A DNA stretch of 5,689 nt from a virus (lineage: Duplodnaviria; Heunggongvirae; Uroviricota; Caudoviricetes), in IMG/VR virus record IMGVR_UViG_2690316099_000018; one strand, given 5' to 3'. The notes beneath the pieces are model-generated. The model searched no databases and was not told where the DNA came from. It saw nothing but the letters and a program-made list of their open reading frames with translations. Positions within the stretch are counted from its first letter, which is position 1; each line of letters opens with the position of its first letter. Below are positions 1 to 5,689 of the stretch, one piece after another. Made by a program: the position numbers and the translations under genes.

Positions 1-16
1 GTGGGGAGTGTTTAAG

Positions 17-544
17 ATGATGCACCTGAAAAATATTAAGGCCGGGAATCCGAAAACACCGGAACAATACCAGCTAACTAAAAAAGCGGGCGTGGTATGG
101 CTCTTTTGCGAAGATGGCAAAAACTGGTATGAGGAACAAAAGAATTTTCAGCCAGACACCATAAAAATTGCTTACGATGAGAACAACATCATCGTTGCTG
201 TCAGTAAAGACGTTTCAACTATTAATCCTGAAGGGCTAAGCATAGTTGAAGTTCCTGATATTACGGCAAATCGTCACGCAGACAATAACGGAAAATGGAT
301 GTTTCTGGATGGTAAAGTAGTAAAGAGGGAATATACAGAACAGGAACTGCAACAACAGGCCGAATCACAAAAGGCCGCATTGCTTTCCGAAGCTGAATCA
401 GTCATCCAGCCGCTGGAACGCGCTGTCAGGCTGAATATGGCGACGGACGAGGAACGCACACGACTGGAAGCATGGGAACGCTACAGTGTTCTGGTCAGCC
501 GTGTGGATACGGCAAATCCTGAATGGCCACAAAAGCCTGAATAA
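17..544 (+). CDS. tfa: Tail fibre assembly protein (Tfa chaperone family, P2 gpG / Mu U / TfaR-like), lying in inverted orientation relative to stf
   Basis: Intact ORF (track 8-544). The C-terminal region ([43 protein letters not shown]) matches the conserved C-terminus of Tfa proteins as I recall it from lambda Tfa ([36 protein letters not shown]...EWP). Start preferred at ATG 17 (MMHLKNI...) because GGGGAG at 3-8 sits about 8-9 nt upstream; the GTG at 8 is the track start. Stop TAA 542-544. Confidence 0.85.
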
Positions 545-2255
545 AAATTAAGGCCCGATANNNNNNNNNNNNNNNNNNNNNNNNNNNNNNNNNNNNNNNN
601 NNNNNNNNNNNNNNNNNNNNNNNNNNNNNNNNNNNNNNNNNNNNNNNNNNNNNNNNNNNNNNNNNNNNNNNNNNNNNNNNNNNNNNNNNNNNNNNNNNNN
701 NNNNNNNNNNNNNNNNNNNNNNNNNNNNNNNNNNNNNNNNNNNNNNNNNNNNNNNNNNNNNNNNNNNNNNNNNNNNNNNNNNNNNNNNNNNNNNNNNNNN
801 NNNNNNNNNNNNNNNNNNNNNNNNNNNNNNNNNNNNNNNNNNNNNNNNNNNNNNNNNNNNNNNNNNNNNNNNNNNNNNNNNNNNNNNNNNNNNNNNNNNN
901 NNNNNNNNNNNNNNNNNNNNNNNNNNNNNNNNNNNNNNNNNNNNNNNNNNNNNNNNNNNNNNNNNNNNNNNNNNNNNNNNNNNNNNNNNNNNNNNNNNNN
1001 NNNNNNNNNNNNNNNNNNNNNNNNNNNNNNNNNNNNNNNNNNNNNNNNNNNNNNNNNNNNNNNNNNNNNNNNNNNNNNNNNNNNNNNNNNNNNNNNNNNN
1101 NNNNNNNNNNNNNNNNNNNNNNNNNNNNNNNNNNNNNNNNNNNNNNNNNNNNNNNNNNNNNNNNNNNNNNNNNNNNNNNNNNNNNNNNNNNNNNNNNNNN
1201 NNNNNNNNNNNNNNNNNNNNNNNNNNNNNNNNNNNNNNNNNNNNNNNNNNNNNNNNNNNNNNNNNNNNNNNNNNNNNNNNNNNNNNNNNNNNNNNNNNNN
1301 NNNNNNNNNNNNNNNNNNNNNNNNNNNNNNNNNNNNNNNNNNNNNNNNNNNNNNNNNNNNNNNNNNNNNNNNNNNNNNNNNNNNNNNNNNNNNNNNNNNN
1401 NNNNNNNNNNNNNNNNNNNNNNNNNNNNNNNNNNNNNNNNNNNNNNNNNNNNNNNNNNNNNNNNNNNNNNNNNNNNNNNNNNNNNNNNNNNNNNNNNNNN
1501 NNNNNNNNNNNNNNNNNNNNNNNNNNNNNNNNNNNNNNNNNNNNNNNNNNNNNNNNNNNNNNNNNNNNNNNNNNNNNNNNNNNNNNNNNNNNNNNNNNNN
1601 NNNNNNNNNNNNNNNNNNNNNNNNNNNNNNNNNNNNNNNNNNNNNNNNNNNNNNNNNNNNNNNNNNNNNNNNNNNNNNNNNNNNNNNNNNNNNNNNNNNN
1701 NNNNNNNNNNNNNNNNNNNNNNNNNNNNNNNNNNNNNNNNNNNNNNNNNNNNNNNNNNNNNNNNNNNNNNNNNNNNNNNNNNNNNNNNNNNNNNNNNNNN
1801 NNNNNNNNNNNNNNNNNNNNNNNNNNNNNNNNNNNNNNNNNNNNNNNNNNNNNNNNNNNNNNNNNNNNNNNNNNNNNNNNNNNNNNNNNNNNNNNNNNNN
1901 NNNNNNNNNNNNNNNNNNNNNNNNNNNNNNNNNNNNNNNNNNNNNNNNNNNNNNNNNNNNNNNNNNNNNNNNNNNNNNNNNNNNNNNNNNNNNNNNNNNN
2001 NNNNNNNNNNNNNNNNNNNNNNNNNNNNNNNNNNNNNNNNNNNNNNNNNNNNNNNNNNNNNNNNNNNNNNNNNNNNNNNNNNNNNNNNNNNNNNNNNNNN
2101 NNNNNNNNNNNNNNNNNNNNNNNNNNNNNNNNNNNNNNNNNNNNNNNNNNNNNNNNNNNNNNNNNNNNNNNNNNNNNNNNNNNNNNNNNNNNNNNNNNNN
2201 NNNNNNNNNNNNNNNNNNNNNNNNNNNNNNNNNNNNNNNNNNNNNNNNNNNNNNN

Positions 2256-4390
2256 AATGAAATGAAGAAAATCTTCTGAACGACGGAAAATTAGACCGAA
2301 GGTATCATTGAAAATTCGCAGCGCATTCACCGTGCCAATTTTCAGTTCTCCGGTCATTTTATCGCCGGAACGCTGAACGGCGTTACCAGCCTTGTTTACC
2401 GTTTCCTGTAAACCGAGGTATTCGATAACGGCGGCAACGGTCGATTTCGCAAGAATATCCCGCCCGACTTTTGTCAGGGTTGCCAGGCTGGCGACATCAT
2501 TCCCCGTAAAATACGGAAACTTGCCTGCCGCAGTAGTAAGTCCGGCCAGCGCCGTCAGGGTGGCATCTTTCGGTTGCTTACCCGCAAGCGCGTTAGTCAT
2601 GGTGGTCGCAAAATTCGGGTCGTTGCCCAGCGCCGCAGCCAGCTCGTTCAGCGTGTTCAGTGCATCAGGTGACGAATCTACAAGGGCGGCAATCGCAGCC
2701 ATAACGAAAGCCGTGCTTGCGATTTGGGTATTATTCGTTCCCTGTCGCGCAGTTGGTGTTGTTGGCGTTCCGGTCAGTGCAGGACTATTTAAGGGCGCTT
2801 TCTTGTTCGTTTCACCCATTACCGCCTTAACCGCTTTTGGCGTTGCCGCCAGTGACTCGGAAGTGCTGTTGGTCGCACTGCTGAGCTGTACTATCCCCTT
2901 TTTCGTCGTGCTCGCATCCTCAAGCGCCACGGCGGATGCAATATCCTCTGCCCGTTTTGCTGCTGTCTCGGCGCGCGTTGCCGCGGATTCAGCAGCAACT
3001 TTGCTCTGAGATGCAGCCGTCGCACTGCCTGCCGCCTCTGATGCTTTCGTTGTTGCTGTCGTGGCACTACCTTTCGCTGCTGACGCTTGTCTGGTCGCCT
3101 CATCTTTTGAAGCAGACGCAGATGATGCCGATGACGCCGCNNNNNNNNNNNNNNNNNNNNNNNNNNNNNNNNNNNNNNNNNNNNNNNNNNNNNNNNNNNN
3201 NNNNNNNNNNNNNNNNNNNNNNNNNNNNNNNNNNNNNNNNNNNNNNNNNNNNNNNNNNNNNNNNNNNNNNNNNNNNNNNNNNNNNNNNNNNNNNNNNNNN
3301 NNNNNNNNNNNNNNNNNNNNNNNNNNNNNNNNNNNNNNNNNNNNNNNNNNNNNNNNNNNNNNNNNNNNNNNNNNNNNNNNNNNNNNNNNNNNNNNNNNNN
3401 NNNNNNNNNNNNNNNNNNNNNNNNNNNNNNNNNNNNNNNNNNNNNNNNNNNNNNNNNNNNNNNNNNNNNNNNNNNNNNNNNNNNNNNNNNNNNNNNNNNN
3501 NNNNNNNNNNNNNNNNNNNNNNNNNNNNNNNNNNNNNNNNNNNNNNNNNNNNNNNNNNNNNNNNNNNNNNNNNNNNNNNNNNNNNNNNNNNGCCGAGGAA
3601 GCTGCACTACTGGCACTTGATGATGCATTCGTTTCTGAAGATTTCGCTGCCTCTTTTGAGGCCGCCGCACCCCGTGCCGAGGTNNNNNNNNNNNNNNNNN
3701 NNNNNNNNNNNNNNNNNNNNNNNNNNNNNNNNNNNNNNNNNNNNNNNNNNNNNNNNNNNNNNNNNNNNNNNNNGATGCTGCGGCATTCGTTTCTGACGTT
3801 TTCGCGGCACTGGCGCTGGTAGCTGCCGCGCTTTTTGATGACTCTGCAGCAGCACTTTTTGCTGCTTCACGGGCCTTTGTCGATGCCGTTCCTGCGCTGG
3901 AAGACGCTGACTGAGCCGACGTCGCGGCCTGTCCGGCTGACGTGCTGGCGGCACGTGCTGAGGCTGCAGCATCGGTTGCATGAGTTGCCGCCTCGCTGGC
4001 TGATTTTTTCGCGGCTGCCGTATTCTGTGCAACCGCGGAGGCGTTACGTGACACCTCTTCCACCATCTGCTCAAAGCGGCGCAGTGCCTCCGGTCGGACA
4101 TCATCCTCCGTCATGGCACCGAGAAAATCATTCAGCGTACCTGGTCTGGAACCTTCATAGACGGTAATGGTCCCGGCATGTGAAGGCGGAAAACCTTCAA
4201 CCAGCAGGGTGACGCTGTACTGACCATGCTCAACATCCATGCTGTAACGTCCGGCTTCATCCGGATTTTCAGAGGCCACCGTGTTCACCACCATCGTGCT
4301 GCTGGTTCGTCTGGCCTTCAGCACAATGGTGCAGTTCTGTACTGGTTTTCCTGTGCCATCTTTAAGCACGCCAGAAATTTTTACTGTCAT
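2256..4390 (-). CDS. stf: Side tail fibre protein Stf (lambda Stf-like); 3' end runs into the masked block 561-2255, and there is an apparent frame discontinuity across masked 3684-3773
   Basis: ATG at 4390-4388. The N-terminus MTVKISGVLKDGTGKPVQNCTI...GFPPSHAGTITVYE...GTLNDFL.AMTEDD matches lambda Stf from recall. An Ala/Ser-rich shaft follows (KSAAAESSKSAAATSASAAKTSETNAAAS). Hand translation of 3683-3592 gives TSARGAAASKEAAKSSETNASSSASSAASS, and 3140-2256 gives ...AGSATAASQSKVAAESAATRAETAAKRAEDIASAVALEDASTTKKGIVQLSSATNSTSESLAATPKAVK...NTLNELAAALGNDP...GRDILAKSTVAAVIEYLGLQETVNKAGNAVQRSGDKMTGEL..., collinear with lambda Stf up to EYLG. The track's 'M' at 2930 is an internal GTG (Val); the frame is open upstream to 3140. 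Confidence 0.9.
2403..2428. other. Candidate crossover site for a Din-family serine invertase (gix/pix/cix/hix-like 26-bp site) embedded in stf at the constant/variable junction
   Basis: Plus-strand sequence TTCCTGTAAACCGAGGTATTCGATAA. It fits the pattern I recall for Gin/Hin/Cin/Pin crossover sites (TTCnTGnAAACCnAGGTnTTnGATAA; gix recalled as TTCCTGTAAACCGAGGTTTTGGATAA, about 24/26 identical). It has imperfect dyad symmetry about a central GA. It encodes ...IEYLGLQE..., exactly where similarity to lambda Stf stops. Confidence 0.6.
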
Positions 4391-4404
4391 ACTTTTCCAC
4401 CAAT

Positions 4405-4437
4405 AAAAAAAGCCCGCAGCAGTGACGCCACGGGCTT
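4405..4437 (-). terminator. Rho-independent terminator between the truncated stf paralogue and full-length stf
   Basis: Minus-strand RNA 5'-AAGCCCGUGGC GUCACU GCUGCGGGCUU followed by a U-run (UUUUUAUUGG): an 11-bp stem including two G-U pairs, a 6-nt loop, and a T-tract (plus-strand A-run 4405-4411). The stf start codon follows about 15 nt downstream. Confidence 0.6.
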
Positions 4438-5174
4438 CAGGACAGTGTAACTTTACGTTTCCTCAAACGCAGNNNNNNNNNNNNNNNNNNNNNNNNNNNN
4501 NNNGTGGATGCAGAAGTGGCTGCTGATTTTTGTGACGCTGCAGCATTCGTTTCTGACGTTTTCGCCGCACCGGCACTGGTGGCCGCCGCGCTTTTTGAGG
4601 ACTCTGCAGCGGCAGCACTTTTTTCCGCTTCAGTGGCCTTTGTTGATGCCGTTCCTGCGCTGGAAGACGCTGACTGAGCCGACGTCGCGGCCTGTCCGGC
4701 TGACGTGCTGGCTGCACGCGCTGAGCCTGCAGCATCAGTCGCATGGGTTGCCGCCTCACGGGCAGATGTGCCGGCATCACTGGCTGACTTCTTCGCGGCT
4801 GCCGTGTTCTGTGCCACCGCGGACGCGTTACGCGCCACCTCTTCCACCATCAGTTCAAAACGGCGCAGAGCCTCCGGACGGGCATCATCCTCCGTCATGG
4901 CACCGAGAAAATCATTCAGCGTACCGGGTCGGGAATCTTCATACACGGTGATGGTCCCGGCATGTGACGGCGGGAATCCTTCCACCAACAGAATAACGCT
5001 GTACTGACCGTACTCAACGTCCATGCTGTAACGCCCGGCTTCATCCGGATTTTCTGAGGCCAGCGTGTTCACCACCACCGTGGTGCTGTTACGTTTTGCT
5101 TTCAGCTGGATTGTGCAGTTCTGTACCGGTTTTCCTGTGCCGTCTTTCAGTACACCTGAAATCTTTACTGCCAT
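4437..5174 (-). CDS. Truncated paralogue of the side tail fibre N-terminal domain (about 240 codons; possible pseudogene or remnant of a second stf module)
   Basis: ATG at 5174-5172 (the track's GTG at 5180 gives MNMAVKISG...). The protein MAVKISGVLKDGTGKPVQNCTIQLKAKRNSTTVVVNT...AAKTSETNAAASQKSAATSAS is about 90% identical by eye to the first ~205 residues of the stf at 4390, with a 7-residue insertion (DAGTSAR) and one extra Ala. After masked 4473-4503, all three frames hit a stop by 4437; the track frame ends ...LRLRKRKVTLS*. Confidence 0.7.
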   Translation of the reverse strand: MAVKISGVLKDGTGKPVQNCTIQLKAKRNSTTVVVNTLASENPDEAGRYSMDVEYGQYSVILLVEGFPPSHAGTITVYEDSRPGTLNDFLGAMTEDDARPEALRRFELMVEEVARNASAVAQNTAAAKKSASDAGTSAREAATHATDAAGSARAASTSAGQAATSAQSASSSAGTASTKATEAEKSAAAAESSKSAAATSAGAAKTSETNAAASQKSAATSASXXXXXXXXXXXLRLRKRKVTLS

Positions 5175-5184
5175 ATTCACCCCA

Positions 5185-5212
5185 CAAAAAAGCCCGCCTG
5201 AACCGGCGGGCT
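5185..5212 (-). terminator. Rho-independent terminator downstream of lom
   Basis: Minus-strand RNA 5'-AGCCCGCC GGUUCA GGCGGGCU followed by UUUUUGUGGGG: a GC-rich 8-bp stem, 6-nt loop and U-tract, immediately after the lom stop (5239-5241) and before the stf-paralogue start region (GGGGTGAATATG). Confidence 0.65.
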
Positions 5213-5238
5213 GTCATAACACTGTGTTACCTGGCTAA

Positions 5239-5689
5239 TCAGAACTTATAACCGACACCCACGATGAAATCGTCAGTGCGCCAGTCGCCACTGCCGGAGC
5301 CTTCATAAGCAATATCAATGGCCACGGATTCGGTCGGGTTAAACTGCACGCCAGCTCCCCACGCCAGAGACGTGTTGCTGTGGCGACCGTCATCACTTCC
5401 GGTCAGCACGTCGTGCGTTTTCCCCTTGTTGTCAGTTACGCGGAGATAATCCCCGGAAAAAGTCGACACACGGCTGTAAGCCACACCCACCATCGCATAC
5501 GCGCTGAACCATTCATTCACGCGTACAGACGGCCCCGCCATCACGCTGAACCAGCGGTTACGCACGGAATCTTCATGCCAGCGGGTATCGCTGTAGTGCG
5601 TTTTTTGCTCATCCTCAGCATTGGCATAACTGAAGGACGTAATCAGCCCCAGCGCGTCCGTAAACTCATAACGGTATTTCACGTTAATC
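5239..5689 (-). CDS. lom: Lom outer-membrane protein (Ail/Lom/OmpX beta-barrel family), 3' portion only; the 5' end lies beyond the window
   Basis: The C-terminus ...SVAIDIAYEGSGSGDWRTDDFIVGVGYKF* matches lambda Lom (...DIAYEGSGSGDWRTDGFIVGVGYKF) from recall, and the N-proximal part ..NVKYRYEFTD.. matches lambda ..INVKYRYELTD... The frame stays open to the window edge. The track's 'M' at 5682 is an internal GTG (Val). Confidence 0.9.
   Translation of the reverse strand, partial: INVKYRYEFTDALGLITSFSYANAEDEQKTHYSDTRWHEDSVRNRWFSVMAGPSVRVNEWFSAYAMVGVAYSRVSTFSGDYLRVTDNKGKTHDVLTGSDDGRHSNTSLAWGAGVQFNPTESVAIDIAYEGSGSGDWRTDDFIVGVGYKF

Follow-up and report, generated by a model that had tools for sequence, protein, structure and literature searches.

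Invertible tail-fibre segments have been a textbook case of programmed DNA inversion since the 1980s. The exact crossover site treated below was reportedly published for Shigella in 1991. In that year, Tominaga et al. (J Bacteriol 173:4079; GenBank D00660) are said to have described the Shigella B segment as highly homologous to the G-gin region of phage Mu, with a different 5' constant region. The crossover sites of this PinB/B-segment system are bixL and bixR, and bixL is given as TTCCTGTAAACC GA GGTATTCGATAA in Table 3 of Din-family sites (PMC3241671). Here we describe a stretch of 5,689 nucleotides (nt) from IMG/VR virus record IMGVR_UViG_2690316099_000018 (the window; all coordinates are those of the window, position 1 being its first letter), in which the tail fibre gene stf carries such a site and faces a tail fibre assembly gene, tfa. 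The window was compared with 364 prophage or phage loci (the relatives, each labelled with L and three digits), which were gathered by exact look-up of the TfaA protein, by BLAST and by stf patterns. Three findings lead us to read the window, with a probability of roughly 0.85, as a copy of a Mu G/Shigella B-segment-type invertible tail-fibre cassette that has been joined to the constant stf part in a lambdoid prophage: the site is identical to a published one, the parts are homologous to those of known cassettes, and near-identical genomes show both orientations with reciprocal half-site exchange.

The mechanism is drawn from what is established for Gin, Cin, Pin, Hin and PinB and is applied to this cassette by homology. 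A small serine invertase would bind two inverted 26-bp sites, bixL inside stf and bixR beside the invertase gene. With Fis on an enhancer that lies within the 5' end of this gene, the invertase would cut at the central GA, rotate the DNA and religate it, and a segment of about 3 kb with two convergent modules of tip and chaperone would flip. In each orientation, the constant part of stf would be fused to a different receptor-binding tip, with that tip's own tfa downstream.

Crossover site and parts of the cassette

The sequence TTCCTGTAAACCGAGGTATTCGATAA was found on the + strand at 2403-2428 as a single occurrence in the window, and comparison with Table 3 of PMC3241671 indicated that it is identical to bixL at 26 of the 26 positions. 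Relative to the Mu gix site, TTCCTGTAAACCGAGGTTTTGGATAA (the same for gixL and gixR, as checked on the Mu record), it has two mismatches (24/26), and a matching sequence was obtained in none of 200 shuffles. The 26-mer has the dix-type layout, with the half-site TTCCTGTAAACC at 2403-2414 on the variable side, the core GA at 2415-2416, and the half-site GGTATTCGATAA at 2417-2428 on the constant side. Within the fibre open reading frame (ORF), it falls in frame where the constant part meets the variable part, ..VIEYLG/LQETVNK.., and the constant part of Stf ends ..VAAVIEYLG at the site. The relatives in which another tip is joined to stf (L008, L010, and L002) matched the window only from 2408 rightwards (99.5-99.7%); accordingly, the break in homology falls inside the site, around the GA at 2415-2416. 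Positions 2256-2434 paired instead with the silent tip of these relatives, which lies on the other strand. An earlier note on this DNA, made from the letters alone, had described a Din-like 26-bp site at the boundary between conserved and divergent Stf. That description was borne out, as the site is identical to bixL and the other-tip alignments stop within it.

The main stf product matched PF08400 (phage_tail_N; E = 1.7e-70) and, in addition, PF03406 (Phage_fiber_2). Together with the spacer between lom and stf, the gene is 99.7-99.9% identical to prophages located beside the trp operon or potABC. The start of the tip joined to it, which is of the type SvA, reads across the site; L004/L011, in which SvA is expressed, match it at 99.7%, and the silent SvA' copy in L008 matches it at 98.3%. 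A short motif, ..NSIVLGDNDTGF.Q.GDG.., is common to the SvA, SvB, and SvD tips (L004 9409-9485 compared with L142 and SvB). Over the first 387 nt or so after the site, SvA and SvD are about 92% identical; farther on they diverge, and the point of divergence looks like a module boundary for the shuffling of tips by homologous recombination.

TfaA (175 amino acids) showed the Pfam domain PF02413 (Caudo_TAP; E = 7.9e-37) and matched the Mu tail fibre assembly protein U (PDB 5YVQ_B) over residues 1-175 with E = 9.9e-94. The nucleotide identity of tfaA was 81% to Mu U and 82% to the P1 homologue. Thus, the complete tfa gene that had been proposed at 17-544, opposite in strand to stf, is a full-length Mu U homologue. 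Immediately before this gene, TAA at 13-15 closes a + strand frame that ends ..VGSV, and bases 1-16 correspond to the final codons of the tip ORF ahead of the matching tfa in relatives. The + strand ORF that had been noticed to end there is, by this match, the end of a tail-fibre tip ORF. The whole of 1-560 is 99.6% identical to L004/L008 and 100% identical to L020. The spacer between the convergent tfa genes consists of a 28-nt hairpin, AAGGCCCG-ATAG-CGGGCCTT, which is the same in relatives and in Mu (L004 10529-10556; Mu record 33503-33530) and probably serves as a terminator in both directions. It also forms the centre of the palindromic assembly L015.

In the relatives, the cassette runs from the recombinase and the inverted partner site (bixR) through the silent tip with its tfa to the convergent tfa, and from there through the expressed tip to bixL and the constant stf; the invertible segment has a length of 2916-3081 bp. 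The + strand tip ORF ahead of tfaA is promoterless, starts at the partner site, and has 280 amino acids in L008/L010 and 298 in L014. The inverted site on the recombinase side is bixR in L008, L010, and L001, where a serine recombinase gene adjoins it. The two tfa genes are 528 and 534 nt long and are separated by the 28-nt hairpin spacer, as in Mu G. The same cassette was observed in L014, a P2-like prophage, with 90% nucleotide identity to Mu U-U'-Sv', and the L014 recombinase of 199 amino acids matched the Gin structures 4M6F/3UJ3 at E of about 1e-101. Furthermore, the lambdoid locus L152 contains an identical bixL, an stf of 95% identity, and a full-length gin-like ORF in the layout recombinase(-)/site/tip'(+)/tfa'(+)/tfa(-)/tip(-)/bixL/const(-). 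The architecture of the Mu G/P1 C/e14 P type that the earlier note predicted, with an inverted site, a tip ORF before tfa, and an adjacent serine recombinase, is therefore present in the relatives.

One relative, L020 (IMGVR_UViG_2693429557_000008), has three crossover sites and three tip-tfa modules at 1-5611, with an intact invertase alongside. Its scaffold begins exactly at a site, and a single N joins two pieces at 3141. Constant-type half-sites were found at both ends of the first piece, which suggests that both orientations were present in the sequenced L020 culture. Some 40 loci among the 364 (L030, L072, and L077 are examples) are lambdoid and have another serine recombinase, only about 36% identical to Gin, which may be of the PinQ/PinR type.

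Orientation of the segment and state of the invertase gene

The segment was found in opposite orientations, at the same chromosomal site, in L004/L011 and in L008/L010. When L004 was aligned with L008 and L010, the 8.5-kb flanks on each side matched in reverse orientation at 99.94-100% identity (99.94-99.99% for L004 versus L008) and enclosed a clean central inversion of 2950 bp, which was co-oriented, with 25-bp overlaps at both ends. The half-sites of the two states are reciprocal, namely TTCCTGTAAACC/GGTATTCGATAA plus TTCTCGTAAACC/GGTTTTAGATAA versus TTCCTGTAAACC/GGTTTTAGATAA plus TTCTCGTAAACC/GGTATTCGATAA; the variable-side halves TTCCTGTAAACC and TTCTCGTAAACC trade partners between the stf-side GGTATTCGATAA and the recombinase-side GGTTTTAGATAA. 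Such a reciprocal exchange is what conservative site-specific recombination leaves behind when it takes place at the core. Since near-identical genomes hold both orientations with swapped half-sites, the segment has flipped in nature, the evidence for both orientations coming from relatives and not from the window's own strain. The caveat of the earlier note, that a Din-like site in a fibre gene might be a mere recombination hot spot, is unneeded here, because real inversion at these sites is seen in relatives.

Segments of this family would be expected to adjoin a small serine invertase with a Resolvase catalytic domain and HTH_7, and the gin-like gene is full length in L014, L015, L020, L151, and L152. 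Among L001-L012, which are the window's nearest relatives, it has been cut to a dead stub of some 60-64 codons (L004 12082-12264; L008 8849-9031; L001 4853-5047), in which a stop at W61 (TGG to TGA) is followed by unrelated DNA. The first 190 nt or so of the stub, taken together with bixR, are 92.5% identical to Mu gixR and the 5' end of gin. The same W61-stop lesion was observed in L004 and L008 despite their opposite orientations. Because one lesion is common to both orientation states, the simplest reading is that flipping went on after the inactivation and was driven by an invertase in trans. Din invertases cross-complement one another. PinQ, which comes from prophage Qin, acts in trans to invert the e14 P segment (PMC12529663). 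Autonomous switching of the window's copy appears unlikely on sequence grounds, because the invertase of the closest lambdoid relatives is a dead stub; we infer that the cassette in the window's lineage would be an orphan, which could flip, if at all, only with the help of a Din-family invertase that another prophage provides in trans.

Beside the stub, tfa gene fragments and a gene for a class I S-adenosylmethionine (SAM)-dependent methyltransferase were found, and this block is kept at two integration sites (trp/ompW and potABC). A 1263-bp insertion sequence (IS) with IS3-family transposase domains occupies the same point of SvA in L003, L005-L007, L009, and L012 (8448-9710), and it also occurs within the stf of L010 at 13523-14785. 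In the six genomes with the IS in SvA, the upstream phage DNA has been replaced. These six are probably Shigella, as their IS load suggests and as none of them is in the E. coli RefSeq set.

Layout of the window and alternative explanations

The features of the window, of which 39.8% is Ns, are collected in Table 1. Its right part (4391-5174) holds tandem stf 5' regions, in which a copy of about 223 codons is followed by lom-stf intergenic DNA and then by the main stf. The join between them at 4473-4503 was not found in any complete E. coli genome searched.

Table 1 Features of the 5,689-nt window and lengths of its N blocks compared with relatives.
Feature	Coordinates	Strand	Basis or remark	Length in window	Length in relatives	Excess
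Last four codons and stop (VGSV-stop) of SvA-type tip ORF ahead of tfaA	1..15	+				
tfaA, tail fibre assembly chaperone	17..544	+	Mu U homologue	175 amino acids		
Left half of 28-nt spacer hairpin between convergent tfa genes	545..560		Comparison with L004, L008, L014, L020, and Mu			
N block	561..2255		By analogy, remainder of expressed tip plus its tfa (minus strand) expected here	1695 nt	1310 nt in L008	+385 nt
First ~53 codons of variable tip joined to stf, type SvA (..LQETVNKAGNAVQRSGDKMTGELKIGTVNALRIFNDTFGLIFRRSEDFLHFI..)	2256..2416	-	Remainder under Ns			
Crossover site	2403..2428		Identical to bixL	26 bp		
Main stf constant part	2417..4390	-	ATG at 4390; PF08400, PF03406; 99.7-99.9% to 918-aa (amino acid) stf of L004/L011			
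N block in stf Ala/Ser-rich repeat region	3141-3591			451 nt	364 nt in every island-carrying relative	+87 nt
N block in stf Ala/Ser-rich repeat region	3684-3773			90 nt	58 nt in every island-carrying relative	+32 nt
Second terminator-like hairpin, ahead of main stf	4438-4409		Terminator scan			
N block	4473-4503		Covers join between extra stf copy and lom-stf intergenic DNA			
Extra upstream stf 5' copy, first ~223 codons	4504..5174	-	85% identical to 4390 copy, 99.1% to lambdoid L079			
Terminator-like hairpin 3' of lom	5212-5191		Terminator scan			
lom 3' part (Ail/Lom outer membrane protein)	5239..5689	-	PF06316, E = 3e-92			

Several observations weigh against reading the window as an invertible cassette of this type. 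Neither an invertase gene nor an inverted partner of the site was found in the readable (non-N) window; the partner site of the relatives lies about 0.9 kb upstream of tfaA, that is, beyond window position 1. In the closest relatives, the SvB tip is interrupted by a premature stop, giving ORFs of 875 and 48 amino acids. A working Fis enhancer kept in the gene stub is something we infer from the retained sequence; in the native Hin system, the proximal Fis site is about 100 bp from hixL (PMC3798978). The layout is a further difficulty. The window's site carries the half-site pair of the state in which SvA is expressed, and 2256-2402 is the start of SvA. This start is on the stf strand, with the end of SvA and tfaA on the opposite strand, and SvA and tfaA are colinear in all four of the other loci that hold both. 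The earlier note had assigned the convergent tfa to an alternative cassette with another tip. This simple form of the reading misfits the window, because the visible tfa is of the A type, the chaperone type paired with the tip now on stf.

Such a layout, with tfaA and the constant/SvA-start sequence both taken on the window's + strand, was not found in 5426 complete E. coli genomes, PLSDB plasmids, and phage records, except in ETEC1706 (L015). In L015, the segment forms a palindrome of 3 kb, and each alignment opens about 30 gaps; its layout was distrusted because it is palindromic and rich in insertions and deletions. By BLAST, no single locus among the 364 contained the whole window. A protein search with the ORF of the constant part and SvA start returned mostly partial fibre proteins and no exact match. 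Scans of viral contigs and metagenomes yielded relatives only and no locus equal to the window, and scans of genome contigs with the 4473-4503 junction and with the window-specific single-nucleotide polymorphisms at 442/445 gave no matches.

The lengths of the N blocks also stand against the reading. From the centre of the crossover to the tfa stop, the window measures 1871 nt versus 1486 nt in L008, the closest relative of that orientation. The block at 561-2255, which had been judged about the right size for a tip and its tfa, is thus 385 nt longer than its equivalent and too long for a standard arm. In stf, 119 extra nt lie between 3140 and 3774 relative to every relative, and the 92-nt island between the two N blocks is 100% identical in the relatives carrying it. 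Because 119 is not a multiple of 3, exact N lengths would place the 5' piece of stf (4390-3774) out of frame with the remainder (3683-2417).

Candidate sources of the extra 385 nt were examined and rejected. No secondary crossover site with fewer than 12 mismatches was detected inside SvA. For a Min-like multi-site arrangement, three sites occur only in L020, and none are spaced by about 385 nt. Recombination at the SvA/SvB motif ..NSIVLGDNDTGF.. would account for the orientations, but it would shorten the arm by 243 nt instead of lengthening it by 385 nt. With the 1263-bp IS at the insertion point in SvA of the L003-type loci, the arithmetic was off by about 20 nt.

Either the source region is a decayed prophage that has been rearranged, or the window does not faithfully represent one contiguous sequence. 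In the latter case, the pieces between the N blocks may stem from paralogous prophage regions (two or three of them) or from a culture of mixed orientation, the convergent tfa may lie elsewhere than it seems to, and stf, SvA, and tfaA may be colinear as in L004. We consider such an artefact of assembly or masking a real possibility, although at somewhat less than even odds. The best match varies by piece, being L020 for 1-560 (100%, P2-like context), the lambdoid L004/L011 for 2256-4472 (99.7-99.9%), and L079 for 4504-5366 (99.1%). All three comparable N blocks are longer than in relatives, one excess not being a multiple of 3; every unusual junction of the window is hidden under Ns, and the first N block begins within the loop of the palindromic spacer hairpin. 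The absence of the layout from the 5426 complete E. coli genomes, save for one palindromic, indel-rich assembly, points the same way, as does the fact that a lone N also joins the pieces of L020, which begins right at a site. However, N runs are rare in the loci (single Ns only, in 4 of the 156 checked), a share of 39.8% looks like deliberate masking, which would keep lengths, and real rearrangements do occur in decayed Shigella-like prophages. Decay itself suggests another explanation, which we regard as possible but doubtful: a cassette of the invertible type may have ceased to switch, its invertase gone or dead with no compatible one at hand and its fibre genes pseudogenes, leaving the site as a scar. 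The gin-like stub of about 60 codons and the internal stop of SvB in the closest relatives, the IS insertions in stf (L010) and in SvA (L003-type loci), the truncated extra stf copy upstream, and the window's stf, out of frame if the N lengths are exact, are all consistent with such a relic. Nevertheless, genomes with the dead invertase and 99.94-100% identical flanks differ in orientation, which argues for flipping after inactivation; Din invertases substitute for one another, as in the action of PinQ on e14 (PMC12529663); and bixR has been kept together with the first 190 nt or so of the invertase gene.

Very improbable, in our judgement, is the notion that the site serves only for horizontal swapping of tips between phages and not for programmed inversion. 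It would fit the sharing of this site and these tips among lambdoid, P2-like, Mu-like, and P1-like contexts, the mosaic tip starts, with SvA and SvD alike for about 387 nt after the site and then divergent, and the presence of a single site in some loci. Nonetheless, the inversion between two sites in near-identical genomes is clean and reciprocal, intact Gin-like invertases adjoin the same cassette, and the site is an experimentally defined crossover site; the two roles are, moreover, not exclusive. We keep to the reading of the window as a copy of an invertible tail-fibre cassette on a lambdoid stf. An extension of this reading, which we hold to be unlikely, is that orphan B-type segments of decayed lambdoid prophages would be flipped by the invertases of co-resident prophages in a cross-prophage network, and that the odd layout of the window would be a real rearrangement creating a chimeric fibre protein. 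If this were true, the chimeric fibre might serve the host, as reported for StfE2, which is made when PinQ inverts the P segment of e14.

Comparison with known inversion systems

The element is of a type already known, a Din-family invertible tail-fibre cassette. For annotation, the 26-mer marks where stf can be rejoined to another tip, and gene calls, pseudogene calls of a "partial tail fibre", and assembly breaks near it are to be read accordingly. The occurrence of near-identical genomes with the same dead invertase and different orientations implies cross-talk between prophages and is of modest interest.

P1 C/Cin and p15B Min have Din-family sites at constant/variable tail-fibre junctions, as here, and L020, with its three sites and three tip-tfa modules, recalls Min; cix and mix, however, differ from the window site (PMC3241671). 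The e14 P/Pin system, and likewise the Pin-type recombinases of Rac and Qin in E. coli K-12, offers a parallel in that an invertible segment lies within the stf of a defective lambdoid prophage, and P can be flipped in trans (PMC12529663). It differs in its length of 1797 bp and in its pix sites, TTCTCCCAAACC AA .. (PMC12529663; PMC3241671). The recombinases of other lambdoid loci, about 36% identical to Gin, form a subgroup apart from the gin/pinB-like gene of the cassette.

The resemblance to Mu G/Gin is broader. The site agrees at 24 of 26 positions, TfaA is a full-length U homologue with 81% nucleotide identity, the tfa sizes of the relatives (528 and 534 nt) and their 28-nt hairpin spacer equal those of Mu, and the gene stub with bixR is 92.5% identical to gixR with the 5' end of gin. 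In contrast, the constant part is a lambdoid Stf (PF08400, with long Ala/Ser-rich repeats) and not Mu S, and SvA is not Mu Sv, no nucleotide match extending beyond about 60 nt at the site. With the Shigella B segment/PinB, which was compared by its sites only, the window shares an identical bixL, and the recombinase-side site of L008, L010, and L001 is bixR; the cassette of the relatives is G-like in size and organisation (2.9-3.1 kb), whereas the pinB/gin-like gene is truncated in the window's closest relatives. The different 5' constant region attributed to the B segment would suit a fibre gene other than that of Mu. Taken together, these sequence comparisons indicate that the closest described relative is the Shigella B segment/PinB by site identity and Mu G/Gin by gene content.

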